From: Gemmatimonadaceae bacterium
GTDB lineage: Bacteria > Gemmatimonadota > Gemmatimonadetes > Gemmatimonadales > Gemmatimonadaceae
NCBI GenBank assembly: GCA_040901985.1
Contig: JBBDYC010000011.1
Coordinates: 1-64,000, forward strand
Direction of reading: 5' to 3'
Length of the DNA: 64,000 bases
In this document: positions 6,001 through 12,000 of the stretch, piece after piece
How the letters are laid out: every line of letters begins with the position of its first letter
How positions within the stretch are numbered: the first letter of the stretch is position 1
Position numbers: made by a program

Positions 6001-9000
6001 TCACGTGGACCAAGGCGACGGTCACCGTGAACGCGCTCTACGGGATCACCTATGGGAACGGCGTCTTCGTCGCGGTCGGCGCCGCCGGGTCAATCTTCAC
6101 GAGTCCCGACGCGGTCACGTGGACGCGGCGGACCTGGTCGGGACCCAGCGCGGATTTCGAAGACGTGGCATTCGGCGTCAACGTCTTCGTCGCGGCCGGG
6201 AACACGTTCGCGCTGTCGCAGTAGGGCGAACGGCTCTCGGCGCACGGGCTGATGGCTGCCTGACTATCGTTTCATCGGAGAGTAGGTAACGCCGACCATC
6301 AGTCGCGCACCCGACGCCGACATGTCGCTGCCCGGAATCTCGTCACCATCGAGCTTGGCGTTCTGGAACGTGCCGCCAGTGACGTTCAGTCCCACCTGCA
6401 GCGCAGTCGATCCCGAAAAGAAGTAGTTGATCCCGCCGCCAAGGGTGAACGAGGCACCGAGTTGCTGGATGTCTCCGCCGATCGTGGAATAGGCGATTGC
6501 GCGCGCGCCGACCGCGCCCTCGAGGTACGGGACGAGAGCCCGGTTGGCATTCGCGAAATTGTACGTGAGCCCGAGGTCGAGGTGTCCGAGGCCGTAGTCG
6601 CCGCCGGCGCCATCCCCCTCGATGATGAGCTTGGCGGCCTCCAGTCCCAGATACACCGTGAAGTTTGGACTGAATCCCCATCCCACGCGCCCGCCAAATC
6701 CATTTCCCTGATCTGTCTCGGCGCCGTCCTGGTCCGACTTCAGTGTGGTTCTGCTGTAGTGCAGATTTCCCACGAAGCCCTTCGTGTTGGACTCCTGGGC
6801 CTGGCCGGGCGGCGGAGCAACAATCAGCATCGCGGCGATGAGCAGACAGGTCGATCGCATCGAATCCTCCTTGGGGAGCGGTGACGGCCACCCGGCGGGC
6901 GCGCTTACAGTGTAGGGCCGAGTACGAAACCGGGCAACTGGTGGCGGCCGGCGCGTCATCGCGGCAGGACTTCCCGACCGACGCAACCCTCGCCACTGTT
7001 ACGTGGCGCCAATTGGAGCACGTGATCGCACAGCTCAGCGGGCGGACTCTAGGCTAGTGTGACGCGCGCCGCAGTCGCTGCAGTCGCTCCCCACCGCTGC
7101 GTAACTCCACCGGTACCCCGTGAACAATCGCTCATCCCTCCGGCGGCTCACCGCGGCCGCCGCAATCCTCCTCGCACCCGCGACCGCCGCGTCCCTGGCG
7201 GCGCAGGACCGCAGTCCCGTCGTGCAGCAGGCCATCGAGCACCGCGATGCCGGCCAGTTCGACGCCGCGGTCCGCTTGCTCGGGCCCTACGTCGCGCGCA
7301 CACCCGACGATGTGGAGGCCGCGCGCGTCCTCGCGCAGTCGCTCTACTGGCTCAAGCGCCCCGACGATGCGCGCGCTGTCTATGAGGCGACGCTCCGGCG
7401 TCATCCGGATGCCGCGGCGCTCGTCCTCGACTTCGGCCGTATGCTCGCTGAGACCGGTGACCGCAAGCGCGCCCGTGCGCTGGCGATGCCACTCGCCGAG
7501 GACCCCACGTGGGGGGCGCGTGCGCGTGCCCTCCTCGGGACCGTTGCCTACTGGGACGGCGATTTCACGAAGGCACGGCGCCTGCTCCGCAGCGTCGTGC
7601 AGGCGGACCCGTCGCAGGAGGAGGCGCGCCGGCAACTTGGCGAGATTGCCGCCGTCACGGCGCCCTGGATCCTGACCGGGGGCGAGTTGCGCGCCGACGA
7701 CCAGCCCCTCGTGCGCCGCGACGTGCGGGTCGCCGCGGGCGTTCACGCGACCCCGCTCCTCTCCCTCACCGCACGCGCCGGGATGCGCCGCGTGACGTCG
7801 GCCGACTCCCTCTCGCTCGACCTGCGAAGCGTCGAGGCGGGCGTGGCGCATTTCGCGCCGGCGCTGCGGCTCGAGACCGACGTGGTGGCCGGCCTTCGGC
7901 AGCGCGATGGCGATGCCGCCTCGTGGACGGGCCGCGGGCGCGCCGGCCTGCGTTTGCCGCGTCACCTCAAGGTCCACGCGATGATGGAACGCGACGAGTA
8001 TCTCCACACGGTCGCGAGCCTGCGGACGTCGGTGATGACCAACACGACGACGGCGCTCGTCACCCTCGACGCGCCGCACGGATGGCTCGGCGAGGCGGCA
8101 GTCCAGCATACCGCGTTCCCCGATGACAACGCCGTGCGCACCGTCTACGCCTGGGTGCTCGTGCCGCTCACGAGGACGGGCAACGCGCGGTTCCAAATGG
8201 GCTACGGGCTCTCCCTGCAGCATGCGGACGAGAGCCGGTTCGTCCTTGCGGATTCCACGCAGCCCTACCCTCCCGGCGATCCGCGCTTCGATGCGAGCGG
8301 AGTGTATGCACCGTACTACACGCCAGCCCACCTCGCCGCGCACTCGGTGCTCGCCAACTGGGAGACGCGCACCGGGGTCGTGACCCTGCGCGCGGGGGGT
8401 TCGTACGCCGTATGGGCGACCGACGACGAGCCGGTGTTCACGACACAGCCGGGCGATCCGGTGGCGCAGTTCGGCTTCACGCCCCGCGCGCTGAAGGCGT
8501 GGACCGTGCGCGGCGGAATGGACATCGCCGCGTCGCCCGACGTCACCATCGTACTGGGCGGTGAGGCGACGCAGGCCGCGTTCTATAGGGTGCTCACGGC
8601 CCGCGCCGGCCTCTCCTGGCGGTTCGCCAGTGCCGCCGCCCGCCGCGCGACACAATGAGCACGGCCGCGCGCGATCCCTGGCACCACCGCATTGCGCGAC
8701 CGTTACGGCTGAGGCACCGCCTGTTGCTCGGCGCGCTCACCGGCTTCGGCCTCATCGCCGTGGCGCGGCTCGTGGACTTCTGGTTCCGCGCCGAGCACGT
8801 CGCGAGCCCGGTGCTGTTCGCGGTGCTCTCCATCGCGTTCTGGTACGGCGTGAGCCGGATCGTGCTGAGCTGGGTGGCGTACACGCGCGTGCGGCGTCCG
8901 GAGCACGTGGCGGCGCCCGACGGACTGCGCGTGGCGATCTTCACCACGAGCTCTCCCGGGGAGCCGCTGGCGATGTTCGAGAAGACGCTCGCGGCGTGCG

Positions 9001-12000
9001 CGCGCATTGACTATCCGCATACGACGTACCTGCTCGACGACACGCGCGACCCGCGGTTCCGGGAGTGCGCCGAGCGGCACGGCGCGGTGTGGCTCGAACT
9101 CGTGGGACTGCCCGGCGCCAAGGCCGGCAAGATCAACGGCGCGCTCGCGCGCGTGACCGAGGACTTCGTGCTGGTGCTCGACCCCGACCATATCCCCTTC
9201 CCCGAGTTCCTCGGCCGGGTGCTCGGGCAGTTCGACGATCCGCGCGTGGGCTTCGTGCAGGTGGCGCAGGCGTACTACAACCAGCCGCGTTCGTTCGTCG
9301 CCCGCGGCGCGGCCGAGCAGACGTACGCGTTCTACGGCCCGGTGCAGATGGGCCTGCACGGCATCGGCTCGGCGGTCGCCATCGGCGCCAACTGCACGTT
9401 CCGGCGCACGGCCCTCGAGTCCATCGGCGGGCACGGCGTCGGGCTTGCCGAGGATCTCGTGACCTCCATCCGCCTGCACGCGGCGGGATGGCGATCCGTC
9501 TACGTGCCCGAGGTCGTCAGTCGCGGACTCGTCCCCGAGGACCTCGGCTCCTTCTACAAGCAGCAACTCAAGTGGGCGCGCGGGGTGTATGAGGTGGCGT
9601 TCAGCGAGTTGCCGCGGCTCTTCCGCCGGCTCACCGGCTGGCAACGACTCACGTATCTCACCATCGGCACCTATTATCTCTTCGGCGTGACGGCAGCGCT
9701 CTTTCTCGTCTTTCCCTACCTGTACCTGTGGACGGGGATCCTTCCGGCCGCGATGCTCTTCCAGCGGTTCCTGGTGGATGCGGTGCCCGTCGCGGCAAGC
9801 GGCGTCGTGATGTATATGGTCGCACAGCAATGGCTCGCGCATCCGGCCATCGAGCGTGGCACACACTGGCGCGGGCTCGTGCTCAAGTTCGCCTCCTGGC
9901 CGGTGTTCCTCGCCGGCACGTTGCTCGCCGTGGGGCGCGCCGAGATCCCGTACATTCCCACGGCCAAGGAAGCGCAGCGCGGCAGGTTCCTGCGCCTCGC
10001 CTGGCCCCAACTGCTGTTGTTCGCCGTCTATGCCGGCACGGTAGCGCGGGTGATCGTCGTACGACTCTACGAAACGGGCGAGGGTGCGTTGCAGCTCAGC
10101 AGCCAAGCGGTGTGGGGCATGGTGGGGTTCGCGACATTGCCGGTGATTCTCGCGGCTGGCGCGGTCTACGCCGCGTGGCAGTCGCGCCATCCCGCGCCCG
10201 GAAACCCGTGGGACGCGATTGACGTCACCGGCATCGGAGGCGAGGCGTGAAGCGCCGACATCGCGTGCTCGTCGCCGTCGCCGTCGTCGTCGGGTCCATC
10301 GCGGCGGTGCTGTTGCTGACGAGCCTCGGCACGAGCACGCGTGGCCCGCTCAGCGGACTCATCGAGCGCATCGGAGCCGGCGTCGGGGCCATCGAATACG
10401 CGGCACGACGGACGCTCTCGCGCACGGGCGGCCGCGCGGCGCAGCTCGCCGCGTTCGCCCCGTACCGGACCGACGCCGACCGCCTGCGACGCCCGGACCG
10501 CGTCCTGCTCGGCGCGTACGAGAGCGGACTGCCCGCCACGCTCGAGGGCGTCGGTGAACTCGAGGGCGCGCTCGGCGTCCCGCTGCCGCTCATCCATTTC
10601 TATGCCGCGTGGGGTGACAAACCCGAGCAGCAGTTCCCGTTGCGCATCGTGCGGGCAATCTGGGATTACGGCTCGGTGCCGATGGTCACCTGGGAGCCGT
10701 GGCTCTCCGACTTCGAGAACACGCTGCACCCCGACCTCCCGCTGCGCGCCGTGCGCGAGCGCCAGGGCATGCGCGCCGTCGCCGACGGGACGTACGACTT
10801 CTATATCAACCGATGGGCCGCCGCGGCCGCCGCGTTCGGCAAGCCCCTGCTGGTCCGATTCGGCCACGAGATGAACGATGGCTATCGCTACCCGTGGGGC
10901 CCGCAGAACAATGCGCGCGAGGACTATGTCGCCGCGTGGCAACACGTCGTGGATCGGTTCCGCGCCGTCGGCGCCACGAACGTCCTCTGGGTCTGGTCGC
11001 CGCACGTGGCGTACGAGGGCTGGCAGTCGTACTACCCAGGCGATGCGTACGTTGACTGGACCGCCACCGGCGCGCTCAACTACGGCCCGATCGCCCAGTG
11101 GTCCGAGTGGTGGACGTTCGCCGAAATCTTCGGCTCGCGCTACGCCGCGCTCGAGGCGTTCGGCAAGCCGGTGATGGTCGCCGAGTTCGGATCCCTCGCG
11201 GTCGGCGGGGACCGAGCGCAGTGGTATCGCGACGCCTTGGCCACGTTGCCGGTTGATTACCCGGCGGTGCGGGCGTTGCTGTTCTTCGAGGTGGGGCGCG
11301 ACCGCACGGTCACGTACCAGGAACTCGACTGGACGGTCCGCACCGATTCCGCCATCGCGCAGGTCATCGGAGCCGCCGTCGGGCCGTGGGCCCCGGGGGT
11401 CAGGCGACCGTAGCCGCGCGAAACGTGGTTGGCATCGGCGCCGCACCGGTGTGACGTTACGGGAATGACAGACGACACGCGAAACGTCCGCGCGCGGCTC
11501 GGCCTCTTGTGCGGACCCGTCCTCTGCGTCGCCACGCTGCTCGTGGCCGGCCCCGAGAGCCTGTCCGCGGAGGCCTGGCGGGCGACCGGCGTCGGGCTGC
11601 TGATGGCGACGTGGTGGATCACCGAAGCCGTCCCCATTCCCGTGACGGCGCTCCTGCCGCTGCTGCTTTTCCCGGTGCTCGGGGTGATGCCGGTGGCCGA
11701 AGCCGCGGCGCCCTATGCGAACCCGGTGATCTTCCTGTTCCTTGGCGGCTTCATCATTGCCGCGGCACTGGCGCAGTGCGGGCTGCACCGGAGGATGGCG
11801 CTCGCGACGATCGGCCTGGTGGGCACGCGACCGGCGAACCTCGTCGCCGGGTTCATGGTGGCGACGGCATTCATCAGTATGTGGGTCAGCAACACGGCGA
11901 CGATCGCGATGATGTTCCCGATGGCGATGTCGGTGATCGCGCTGGCCGAGCGGGACGCACGCGTCGGGGACGCGGGATTCGCCATCGCGCTCCTGCTCGG

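Follow-up and report, generated by a model that had tools for sequence, protein, structure and literature searches.

The window analysed here is a stretch of 64,000 nucleotides from a Gemmatimonadaceae bacterium (contig JBBDYC010000011.1, positions 1 to 64,000). Within it, three open reading frames on the forward strand overlap by 4 bp at both junctions (porin/synthase and synthase/GH26) and match Pfam TPR, GT2 and GH26, in agreement with the overlapping three-gene operon of a preliminary description.

7120..8658, + strand: gene 1, predicted outer-membrane export channel (ORF, 512 aa; Pfam TPR; model and structural matches)
7666..8622, + strand: part of gene 1 that encodes the barrel, residues 183-501 (strands assigned by DSSP on the model)
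8655..10250, + strand: gene 2, predicted processive GT2 synthase (ORF, 531 aa; Pfam GT2; model)
9180..9575, + strand: synthase catalytic motifs DPDH, AIGAN, GLAED and QQLKW (sequence, invariant columns, alignment with BcsA, BgsA-like proteins and ApsS)
10247..11413, + strand: gene 3, predicted membrane-anchored GH26 (ORF, 388 aa; Pfam GH26; PDB matches, hydropathy)

The composition of the operon carries no foreign signal (GC 0.706 vs 0.693 for the genome). A promoter scan returned no sigma-70 site, no clear terminator lies 3' of gene 3, and an Rfam scan of positions 1-25000 of the window gave no match. Flanking genes were rejected as operon parts: the upstream barrel gene and 341-aa gene have no match in 118 loci, and among the downstream DASS transporter, P-type ATPase and Usp genes there is a single ATPase match in these loci and none for the others.

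The gene 1 product comprises a signal peptide (about residues 1-28, called from hydropathy and by eye), TPR helices (33-179), a 16-strand beta-barrel (183-501) and a short C-terminal helix. Its model (pLDDT 93.6) contains four TPRs and resolves all 16 strands, which overturns the earlier statement that the barrel stays unresolved and bears out the export channel predicted from the long C-terminal region. The top structural matches are BcsC (9b8h/6tzk), PgaA (4y25) and PelB (9h80), with Z values of 24.7-26.4 (next match, 18.4), and Foldseek ranks them in the same order. Alignment with PgaA covers 274 of 290 residues at an rmsd of 2.5, and Atlas features include BCSC_C at 0.95. Residues D193, Q195 and G361 and the loop Y396-x-P-Y-x-T-P402 are conserved in the family. 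As modelled, gene 1 has a TPR scaffold and an outer-membrane barrel of the BcsC/PgaA type.

The gene 2 product has six membrane helices, two of them N-terminal and four C-terminal, together with interface helices, a gating loop (YIPTAK) and a 22-residue tail. Its motifs were read directly (D128-D129, D176-P-D178, E266-D267 and Q303-QLK-W307, with DPDH at 176-179, AIGAN at 242-246, GLAED at 263-267 and QQLKW at 303-307), and the D,D,D,QxxRW-type signature, with K for R, is invariant in the family. The model (pLDDT 93.9) adopts the six-helix BcsA fold and superposes on BcsA 4p00 over 495 residues including the membrane channel (Z 30.6, rmsd 3.0), leaving the first approximately 60 residues of BcsA unmatched. 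The preliminary description had confined the BcsA match to the catalytic core, which is correct for phmmer (residues 140-374) but not for the fold. PilZ motifs occur in none of 72 synthase tails (7-37 aa), no PilZ domain was found in the organism's own genome by a search whose control was positive in 5 of 14, and two BcsB queries had no match in this genome or in 92 loci. The previous portrayal as a 531-aa processive GT2 with DxD, ED and QxxKW, devoid of PilZ or BcsB, is therefore retained. Judging from the model, gene 2 is a membrane GT2 with its own channel.

The synthase scores 164 bits with NCBIfam CelA (cut-off 699) and 53 bits against 422 with the PgaC model. When aligned with BcsA, BgsA-like proteins and ApsS, the QTPH, FFCGS and TED motifs of BcsA are all changed, and AIGAN sits where BcsA has FFCGS. 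Diagnostic-residue typing against BcsA, CrdS and BgsA (PMC6821405, tables S7 and S8) yields a mosaic: BcsA-type H249, Y302, H351, Y359, P370, F376 and Y410 are present, the CrdS positions of table S8 are mixed, and P275, D310, R380, R382 and V505 (RsBcsA numbers), which those tables list as fully conserved across all three, are missing.

Gene 3 encodes catalytic E208 and E313 behind a hydrophobic helix (residues 7-25), which by hydropathy agrees with the membrane anchor proposed earlier; a lipobox-like motif occurs in only 1 of 71 GH26 sequences. The anchor would place the enzyme in the periplasm. Among PDB entries CelH matches best (E 2.1e-35), followed by a mannanase at 7.2e-7, as expected for the lichenase affinity previously noted, and the family profile separates CelH (3.8e-47) from the next family (1.1e-9) and from xylanases (1.8e-7 and 3.2e-7). 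The closest solved enzyme is CtLic26A, the GH26 domain of Clostridium thermocellum CelH, with which the HE motif, both glutamates and several aromatics align. However, CtLic26A is a degradative cellulosome module, whereas the protein described here is membrane-anchored and synthase-linked. Moreover, although R204, H207, E208, L277 and E313 are kept in 72 of 72 sequences, the Asp-x-Tyr that the CelH lichenase carries on the strand preceding its nucleophile (D182-x-Y184) is G275-x-L277 here. This D-x-Y is listed among the conserved active-site residues of GH26 mannanases (PMC6556568). Mannanases make up most of GH26 (PMC13390465), and the characterised basis of its lichenase branch is one enzyme (PMC10470212).

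Of 112 relatives that the synthase has in GTDB, the best 80 were examined, and gene order is fixed across these loci. The barrel profile places a porin upstream of the synthase in 78, the two misses (L026 and L057) having the synthase within 140 bp of a contig edge; this is slightly above the count of 76 first reported. For GH26, matched in 77 loci (one, L019, by its anchor only), the original count of 76 of 80 stands, the four loci without a full GH26 being on contigs of 2.8-3.8 kb. With automatic start calls, a 4-bp overlap between the synthase and GH26 genes is seen at 37 of 71 junctions. A reverse search from the porin gave 33 metagenome loci, 23 of which have the synthase as the adjacent gene, and the linkage is consequently not due to chance; among the other ten, nine lie on contigs that stop no more than 151 bp from the porin match and one match is weak (31 residues). 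Among 301 genomes of the phylum, all three genes occur in the same 3. The system recurs in several bacterial phyla, including Gemmatimonadota, Acidobacteriota and Bacteroidota, as had been claimed. In a plasmid collection, 512 records were retrieved, the top ones at about 26-32% identity, with no close relative.

No fourth conserved gene was found near these loci. RfbF, RfbG and an SDR, a CDP-6-deoxysugar module, adjoin 7 of the 80 (Bacteroidales; inside the operon in 2), and RfbF and RfbG exceed the NCBIfam cut-off in all 4 loci scanned. This module was rejected as part of the core because RfbF occurs in just 15 of the 50 genomes that carry the operon; RfbF is absent from the organism's own genome, and the seven loci need only two changes on the tree. 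A GGDEF-EAL neighbour was likewise rejected, being found at only 7 loci, on the convergent strand, beside synthases that are 73-88% identical.

We are highly confident that these genes have the architecture of a self-contained synthase-dependent exopolysaccharide secretion system, and the minimal system proposed at the outset is upheld by the BcsC/PgaA-type porin, the GT2 lacking PilZ and the missing BcsB. The GT2 would build the polymer from a nucleotide sugar (UDP-glucose being the likeliest donor) and push the chain through its own six-helix channel. Since the synthase lacks PilZ, its gating loop would operate without a c-di-GMP lock, and control is probably exerted at expression. The GH26, held on its inner-membrane anchor with the active site in the periplasm, may trim or release chains as BcsZ does; a sister clade has GH26 fused behind its synthase. 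The TPR-barrel protein would then guide and export the chain, by analogy with BcsC, PgaA and PelB.

The overall design of synthase, hydrolase and TPR-porin is standard. PgaABCD and Pel produce amino-sugar polymers, employ deacetylases and are under c-di-GMP control. They share the porin fold, the TPR scaffold and the synthase-plus-hydrolase logic (PgaA 4y25, PelB 9h80). Bcs cellulose secretion (BcsA-BcsB-BcsZ-BcsC; 4p00, 9b8h, 6tzk) has in common the BcsA fold with channel and gating loop, and an operon encoding a TPR plus 16-strand porin and a periplasmic hydrolase. In contrast, Bcs has PilZ and BcsB, its hydrolase is GH8 rather than GH26, its acceptor motifs differ from those found here, and E. 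coli BcsC has 1157 aa vs 512 aa for the present porin. BgsBA of S. meliloti resembles the system in having a GT2 without PilZ, and possibly in its product, but BgsA falls in another clade. BgsA has a c-di-GMP-binding tail, unlike the short tails here, and exports by HlyD-type BgsB and TolC (PMC13438883). The bicistronic bgsBA operon contains no hydrolase gene. No match to HlyD-type BgsB was found near the loci or in the organism's own genome.

The APS operon of S. meliloti, as described in citing papers and annotation, likewise pairs a cellulose-synthase-like GT2 with GH26, a known pairing that the preliminary description had missed. These sources also indicate that APS contains arabinose, that c-di-GMP acts through the activator CuxR, and that, unlike the system here, the operon carries pentose-supply genes and two DUF995 genes but no TPR-porin. 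Neither uxs-uxe nor DUF995 genes were found near our loci (best Uxs/Uxe matches, 24-31% across 80 three-gene and 12 fused loci). The APS hydrolase, ApsE, is xylanase-like (best match a beta-1,3-xylanase, 2.7e-5; CelH unmatched at E 1), so the only known example has a GH26 whose branch matches the sugar of its operon.

In quick, unrooted trees (SH-aLRT only) that leave out CrdS, RiGT2, CslA, plant enzymes and R. sphaeroides BcsA, the synthase clade groups with ApsS, apart from BcsA and BgsA, with branch support of 100. The BcsA and BgsA-like rows of the final tree were trimmed shorter by the profile, and the BgsA label of L084 derives from its replicon and grouping. ApsS, the only characterised synthase inside this branch, sits on a long stem, has 28% and 31% identity, and has indels in common with the clade.

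Two related clades also couple a synthase with a hydrolase. GH158 is a beta-1,3-glucanase family. A Bacteroidota sister clade (39-46% identity in the rows inspected) has its synthase fused to GH26 and GH158, both found in 98 of 120 long proteins (GH158 by PDB match). Catalytic pairs in these 98 are kept by GH158 only in 56, by GH26 only in 14, by both in 25 and by neither in 3, as if either enzyme may do the job. A free GH158 with the acid/base motif adjoins 11 of 12 fetched sister-clade loci, whereas no porin gene is adjacent to the fused gene. Because kin are not independent, the Fisher value for the GH158 evidence (p 1.8e-4) overstates its strength. In a clade further removed, whose synthases carry BcsA-type motifs, the three-gene arrangement recurs with GH8 as the hydrolase in 13 of 13 fetched loci (of 20), and the porins there have 715-1059 aa.

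We lean slightly toward a beta-glucan containing 1,3 links as the product, a reading suggested by sequence comparisons: the GH26 is lichenase-like while ApsE is xylanase-like, and the sister clade adds GH158. The mixed-linkage beta-glucan named in the preliminary description is only partly supported and somewhat less likely than not, for although 1,3 links are favoured, the synthase lies outside the BgsA clade and a 1,3-rich glucan fits equally. The latter follows from characterised BuGH158 being roughly 100 times less effective with mixed-linkage glucan as substrate than with laminarin (PMC7157763); a 1,3-rich or curdlan-like glucan is nonetheless quite unlikely. Against the 1,3-glucan reading are the loss of Asp-x-Tyr from GH26, the single characterised enzyme behind the lichenase branch, the arabinose-containing product of ApsS, the missing conserved residues and mosaic typing of the synthase, the CDP-6-deoxysugar module of one lineage, and the origin of the GH158 evidence in a sister clade. 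A further point against it is that no GalU was found above the cut-off in the organism's own genome (99.97% complete).

The same machine might instead make a pentose- or 6-deoxyhexose-containing polymer like APS, whose sugar without a C6 hydroxyl would be reflected in the altered acceptor-site motifs. This is unlikely; in its favour are the nesting of ApsS with the clade, the common indels, a UDP-xylose synthase homologue in the organism's own genome (55% to Uxs), and the RfbF-RfbG-SDR genes beside some loci. However, the ApsS branch is long, the neighbourhoods contain no Uxs/Uxe orthologue, the RfbF distribution is patchy, and the GH26 keeps its HE motif and stands far from the xylanases.

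A distinctly unlikely product is cellulose, made by a c-di-GMP-independent beta-1,4-glucan synthase with GH26 in place of BcsZ. The best structural matches of synthase and porin (BcsA and BcsC) and the seven BcsA-type residues are consistent with it, but QTPH, FFCGS and TED are all changed, BcsA falls in a separate group of the tree, the three-gene clade that does resemble BcsA has GH8 as its hydrolase, and the sister-clade GH158 partners point to 1,3 links. We consider it very unlikely that only short periplasmic or cell-anchored glucans are formed, with GH26 as a transglycosylase or slow editor; D-x-Y is invariantly lost and the TPR region, at about 150 residues, is small vs the porins of the GH8 clade, but the recurrent BcsC/PgaA-type porin argues for export and neither catalytic glutamate varies. 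The Thr of TED is replaced here, a change also seen in plant CSLA mannan synthases, and GH26 consists mainly of mannanases, but a beta-mannan or glucomannan is highly improbable, as mannanases match at 1e-9 or weaker vs 4e-47 for lichenase and GDP-mannose genes are absent among the recurring neighbours inspected.

The literature searched, aside from the list of 28 clusters in the epsSMASH preprint, yielded no description of this three-gene system, and the export machine is apparently unstudied. It is conceivable, if somewhat short of probable, that the synthase represents a large uncharacterised branch of processive GT2 enzymes (QQLKW/AIGAN) in which (1,3)-linked glucan synthesis arose independently or an undescribed polymer is made, working without c-di-GMP or BcsB and with its hydrolase held, through an anchor or a fusion, where the chain leaves the channel. 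If so, three genes would suffice for a complete and portable export machine in Gram-negative bacteria, and GH26/GH158 genes now read as degradative in many Bacteroidota would be biosynthetic. The layout offers a test of how small a Gram-negative export machine can be and of whether PilZ and BcsB are dispensable for a synthase. RiGT2 models could not separate cellulose from mixed-linkage glucan (PMC10374906), and a branch with rewritten acceptor motifs offers a natural test of how GT2 synthases pick 1,3 vs 1,4 links. Because fused relatives occur in named, cultured Bacteroidota such as Chryseolinea soli and Pontibacter vulgaris, experiments are within reach. The findings also suggest that known-cluster searches may overlook exopolysaccharide genes in members of Gemmatimonadota, Acidobacteriota and Bacteroidota.

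The three open reading frames of the operon were confirmed where the preliminary description had placed them, with overlaps of 4 bp at both junctions and Pfam matches to TPR repeats (gene 1), GT2 (gene 2) and GH26 (gene 3). The operon and its neighbours in the window are as follows.

5199-6224, + strand: 341-aa repeat-rich lipoprotein-like ORF (DUF6242 match)
6264-6986, - strand: small outer-membrane barrel gene, divergent from the operon
7120-8658, + strand: gene 1, predicted TPR-barrel porin
8655-10250, + strand: gene 2, predicted GT2 synthase
10247-11413, + strand: gene 3, GH26
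11429-16616, same strand as the operon: DASS transporter, Ca-type P-ATPase and Usp genes, the first starting no more than about 50 bp from the GH26 stop codon

Neither the 341-aa ORF nor the small barrel gene recurs beside the operon in other loci, the downstream genes are not conserved there, and no conserved fourth gene was found among the loci compared. Farther upstream are a Phd/YefM-ParE toxin-antitoxin pair and an IS481-like transposase (135-715; 3592-4515), and GC is lower over positions 1-7000 (0.654 vs 0.693). A Cache-HAMP-PAS-GGDEF-EAL gene converges on the GH26 gene in 7 Acidobacteriota loci (L070, 12687-15359; L054, L057, L061, L062, L063 and L073), which may be local synteny.

Each gene is present once in the genome (2.64 Mb, 99.97% complete). 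Among the best 80 of 112 GTDB relatives of the synthase, the closest of which is 86% identical and comes from a Gemmatimonadaceae bin, the porin lies upstream in 78 loci and GH26 downstream in 77 (one a fragment only), and all loci missing either gene are at contig ends. Both the linkage and the spread over several phyla proposed earlier are thus upheld: a tree of 78 synthases holds 30 from Gemmatimonadota, 26 from Bacteroidota, 14 from Acidobacteriota and 4 from Rhodothermota. A reverse search from the porin yielded 33 metagenome loci, with the synthase next in 23, a contig end within 151 bp in 9 and one weak match. Across 301 genomes of the same phylum, the porin, a close synthase and a close GH26 coincide in the same 3 genomes, and none of the three was found in the 5 genomes of the genus. 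The type is present in 5 of 401 Bacteroidota-side genomes, 2 of them already among the 80 loci, and the 3 new ones carry all three genes. GH26 is interrupted by an in-frame stop in 2 bins (L023, 11937; L044, 6120), and in one of the 3 phylum genomes (G747) a Mutator transposase splits the synthase (L181, 7457-8743). The three genes travel together, and the system is rare and patchy. It is probably mobile; the tree needs 8 phylum changes against a minimum of 6.

The barrel of gene 1, left open previously, is now resolved. A model built from 65 homologues (mean pLDDT 93.6) has a signal region, TPR helices at 33-179 and 16 strands counted as a barrel, with two inserted loops. When it was compared with 48,161 solved chains, the first two matches were BcsC (Z 26.4, rmsd 10.4, 452 aligned; Z 26.3, rmsd 5.0, 351 aligned), followed by PgaA (Z 26.2, rmsd 2.5, 274/290 residues) and PelB (Z 24.7, rmsd 5.1, 353 aligned), and the fifth dropped to Z 18.4. 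Foldseek likewise placed BcsC, PgaA and PelB first, and an Atlas feature search gave BCSC_C at 0.95, the closest structural clusters being unnamed. Gene 1 is therefore predicted to be an export channel.

The gene 2 model (pLDDT 93.9) comprises two membrane helices, a catalytic domain, interface helices, four further membrane helices and a short tail. The alignment with BcsA 4p00 covers 495 residues (Z 30.6, rmsd 3.0) and is better than those with plant CesA (Z 22.9) and CslF6 (Z 21.0). PilZ motifs occur in 0 of 72 synthase tails, which are 7-37 residues long, and searches of the genome for PilZ, BcsB, BcsC and BgsB returned no match. As described before, gene 2 is thus modelled as a processive synthase that lacks PilZ and a BcsB partner. 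RiGT2 (PMC10374906) is a precedent for synthesis independent of BcsB and c-di-GMP, yet differs from gene 2 in retaining a PilZ fold.

A search for longer proteins gave 1015 at E 1e-20, of which 120 (P0077-P0196) were considered. In a Bacteroidota sister clade the synthase runs on into GH26 and then GH158 (about 1250 aa; GH158 identified by PDB matches 9oro, 2.5e-26, and 6pal, 3.9e-21), and 98 of these 120 matches carry both domains. A free GH158 with the acid/base motif adjoins the fusion in 11 of 12 loci fetched (L116-L127); none of the 12 has a porin match. Losses of catalytic residues are complementary between the hydrolases of the fusion, and just 3 of the 98 have lost both pairs. Other fusions of the branch (P0286, P0310, P0319, P0227, P0295, P0301, P0303) include GT2 plus TPR with a weak barrel match, GH158-like plus TPR before GT2, GT87 before GT2, and a tandem double GT2. 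According to PMC7157763, BuGH158 acts strictly as a beta-1,3-glucanase, and mixed-linkage glucan is about 100-fold poorer than laminarin as its substrate. By analogy, the GH158 partners, which belong to a clade about 42% identical, favour 1,3 links without a specific pull to mixed-linkage glucan, so that the 1,3 links of the product first proposed gain support and its mixed-linkage character does not. A 1,3-containing beta-glucan is somewhat the better bet as the product; of its two forms, each weighed against all readings, mixed-linkage glucan is plausible at less than an even chance, and a 1,3-rich glucan is rather unlikely.

A plasmid search reached the nearest known system, which the preliminary description had not mentioned: the Sinorhizobium meliloti arabinose-containing polysaccharide system (APS), ordered uxs, galE-like, GT2, DUF995, GH26, DUF995. 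In a quick tree of 65 rows, its GT2, ApsS, nests with the operon and fused clades, apart from BcsA, BgsA-like and GH8-type synthases (SH-aLRT 100; 94 in another quick tree). The pairing of GT2 with GH26 is therefore not new, and glucan is not necessarily what this branch produces. Gemmatimonadota GT2s with an xGSH motif (L171-L174, L177, L183) also lie on the ApsS side, and their neighbours mostly match no Pfam family. APS is a useful control: its GH26, ApsE, best matches a beta-1,3-xylanase rather than CelH, in keeping with its pentose genes, whereas the operon's GH26 matches CelH. A UDP-xylose synthase homologue is present in the genome, which has no GalU above the cut-off, and no uxs or uxe orthologue was found near operon loci. 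An oddity that bears on a possible deoxysugar polymer is a module of glucose-1-phosphate cytidylyltransferase, CDP-glucose 4,6-dehydratase and SDR, corresponding to a CDP-6-deoxyhexose route, beside 7 of the 80 loci, all in Bacteroidales-type bins (RfbF-RfbG identified by scanning 4 of the 7).

L048 5468-8279, L050, L068, L079: RfbF-RfbG-SDR module upstream of the operon
L055 6393-9162, L066 11600-14363: module inside the operon
L067 4043-6965: module on the other strand

No second glycosyltransferase was seen within the module in these loci, and position 261 is A instead of G in 6 of their 7 synthases. RfbF occurs in 15 of 50 operon-bearing genomes and was not found in this one. The module, needing 2 changes on the tree, is a lineage add-on; it may be a passenger, or else provide the polymer with a 6-deoxysugar. 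Overall, a pentose or deoxy polymer is unlikely, though it is the strongest rival.

Cellulose is improbable. The catalytic aspartates are conserved and, typed against the S7/S8 tables of Oehme et al. (PMC6821405), gene 2 is BcsA-like at seven diagnostic positions and CrdS/BgsA-like at four, while five residues common to BcsA, CrdS and BgsA families are absent. On the acceptor side the motifs differ from those of BcsA: QTPH has become QxxQxY, FFCGS AIGAN, ITED GLAED, QRxRW QQLKW and FxVTxK YIPTAK. The linkage cannot be read from the synthase sequence. Members of a third clade, farther removed, occur in 20 of the 401 Bacteroidota-side genomes and combine BcsA-type motifs, a long TPR gene and GH8. 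All 13 loci fetched share the three-gene layout (GH8 confirmed by Pfam in 5, barrel match in 6), so the same plan exists with more than one kind of hydrolase. This system, seen in Bacteroidota-side genomes of small size (1.9-3.0 Mb; L131-L143, L184), with a long TPR-barrel gene and a 501-aa GT2 leaving no space for PilZ, looks like a minimal cellulose-type system.

In gene 3, the N-terminus is basic and leads into a single hydrophobic helix (7-25), and a lipobox-like motif occurs in just 1 of 71 homologues, from which we infer an uncleaved inner-membrane anchor. Short or anchored glucans are quite improbable as the product. R204, H207, E208 and E313 are invariant (72/72). CelH has D182-x-Y184, whereas the gene 3 family mostly has G-x-L, with L277 invariant; the equivalent Asp and Tyr are listed among conserved active-site residues in GH26 mannanases (PMC6556568), and the enzyme is possibly slower or altered. 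Mannan is very improbable, the GH26 family profile giving 3.8e-47 for CelH, 1.1e-9 for mannanases and about 2e-7 for xylanases.

Our observations comprise folds, motifs, gene order, co-occurrence and fusion in relatives. In the mechanism proposed, the GT2 would polymerise and translocate the chain with no c-di-GMP gate, GH26 would trim it in the periplasm, and the porin would export it. A full-text literature search, largely outside subscription journals, found no paper on the operon or the GT2-GH26-GH158 fusion, and the term GH26 is absent from the searched text of PMC10374906, PMC13438883, PMC8892547, the epsSMASH preprint and the fungal synthase preprint. We conclude that the operon is real and represents an undescribed variant of a familiar type of machine, whose synthase comes from a branch not yet characterised.
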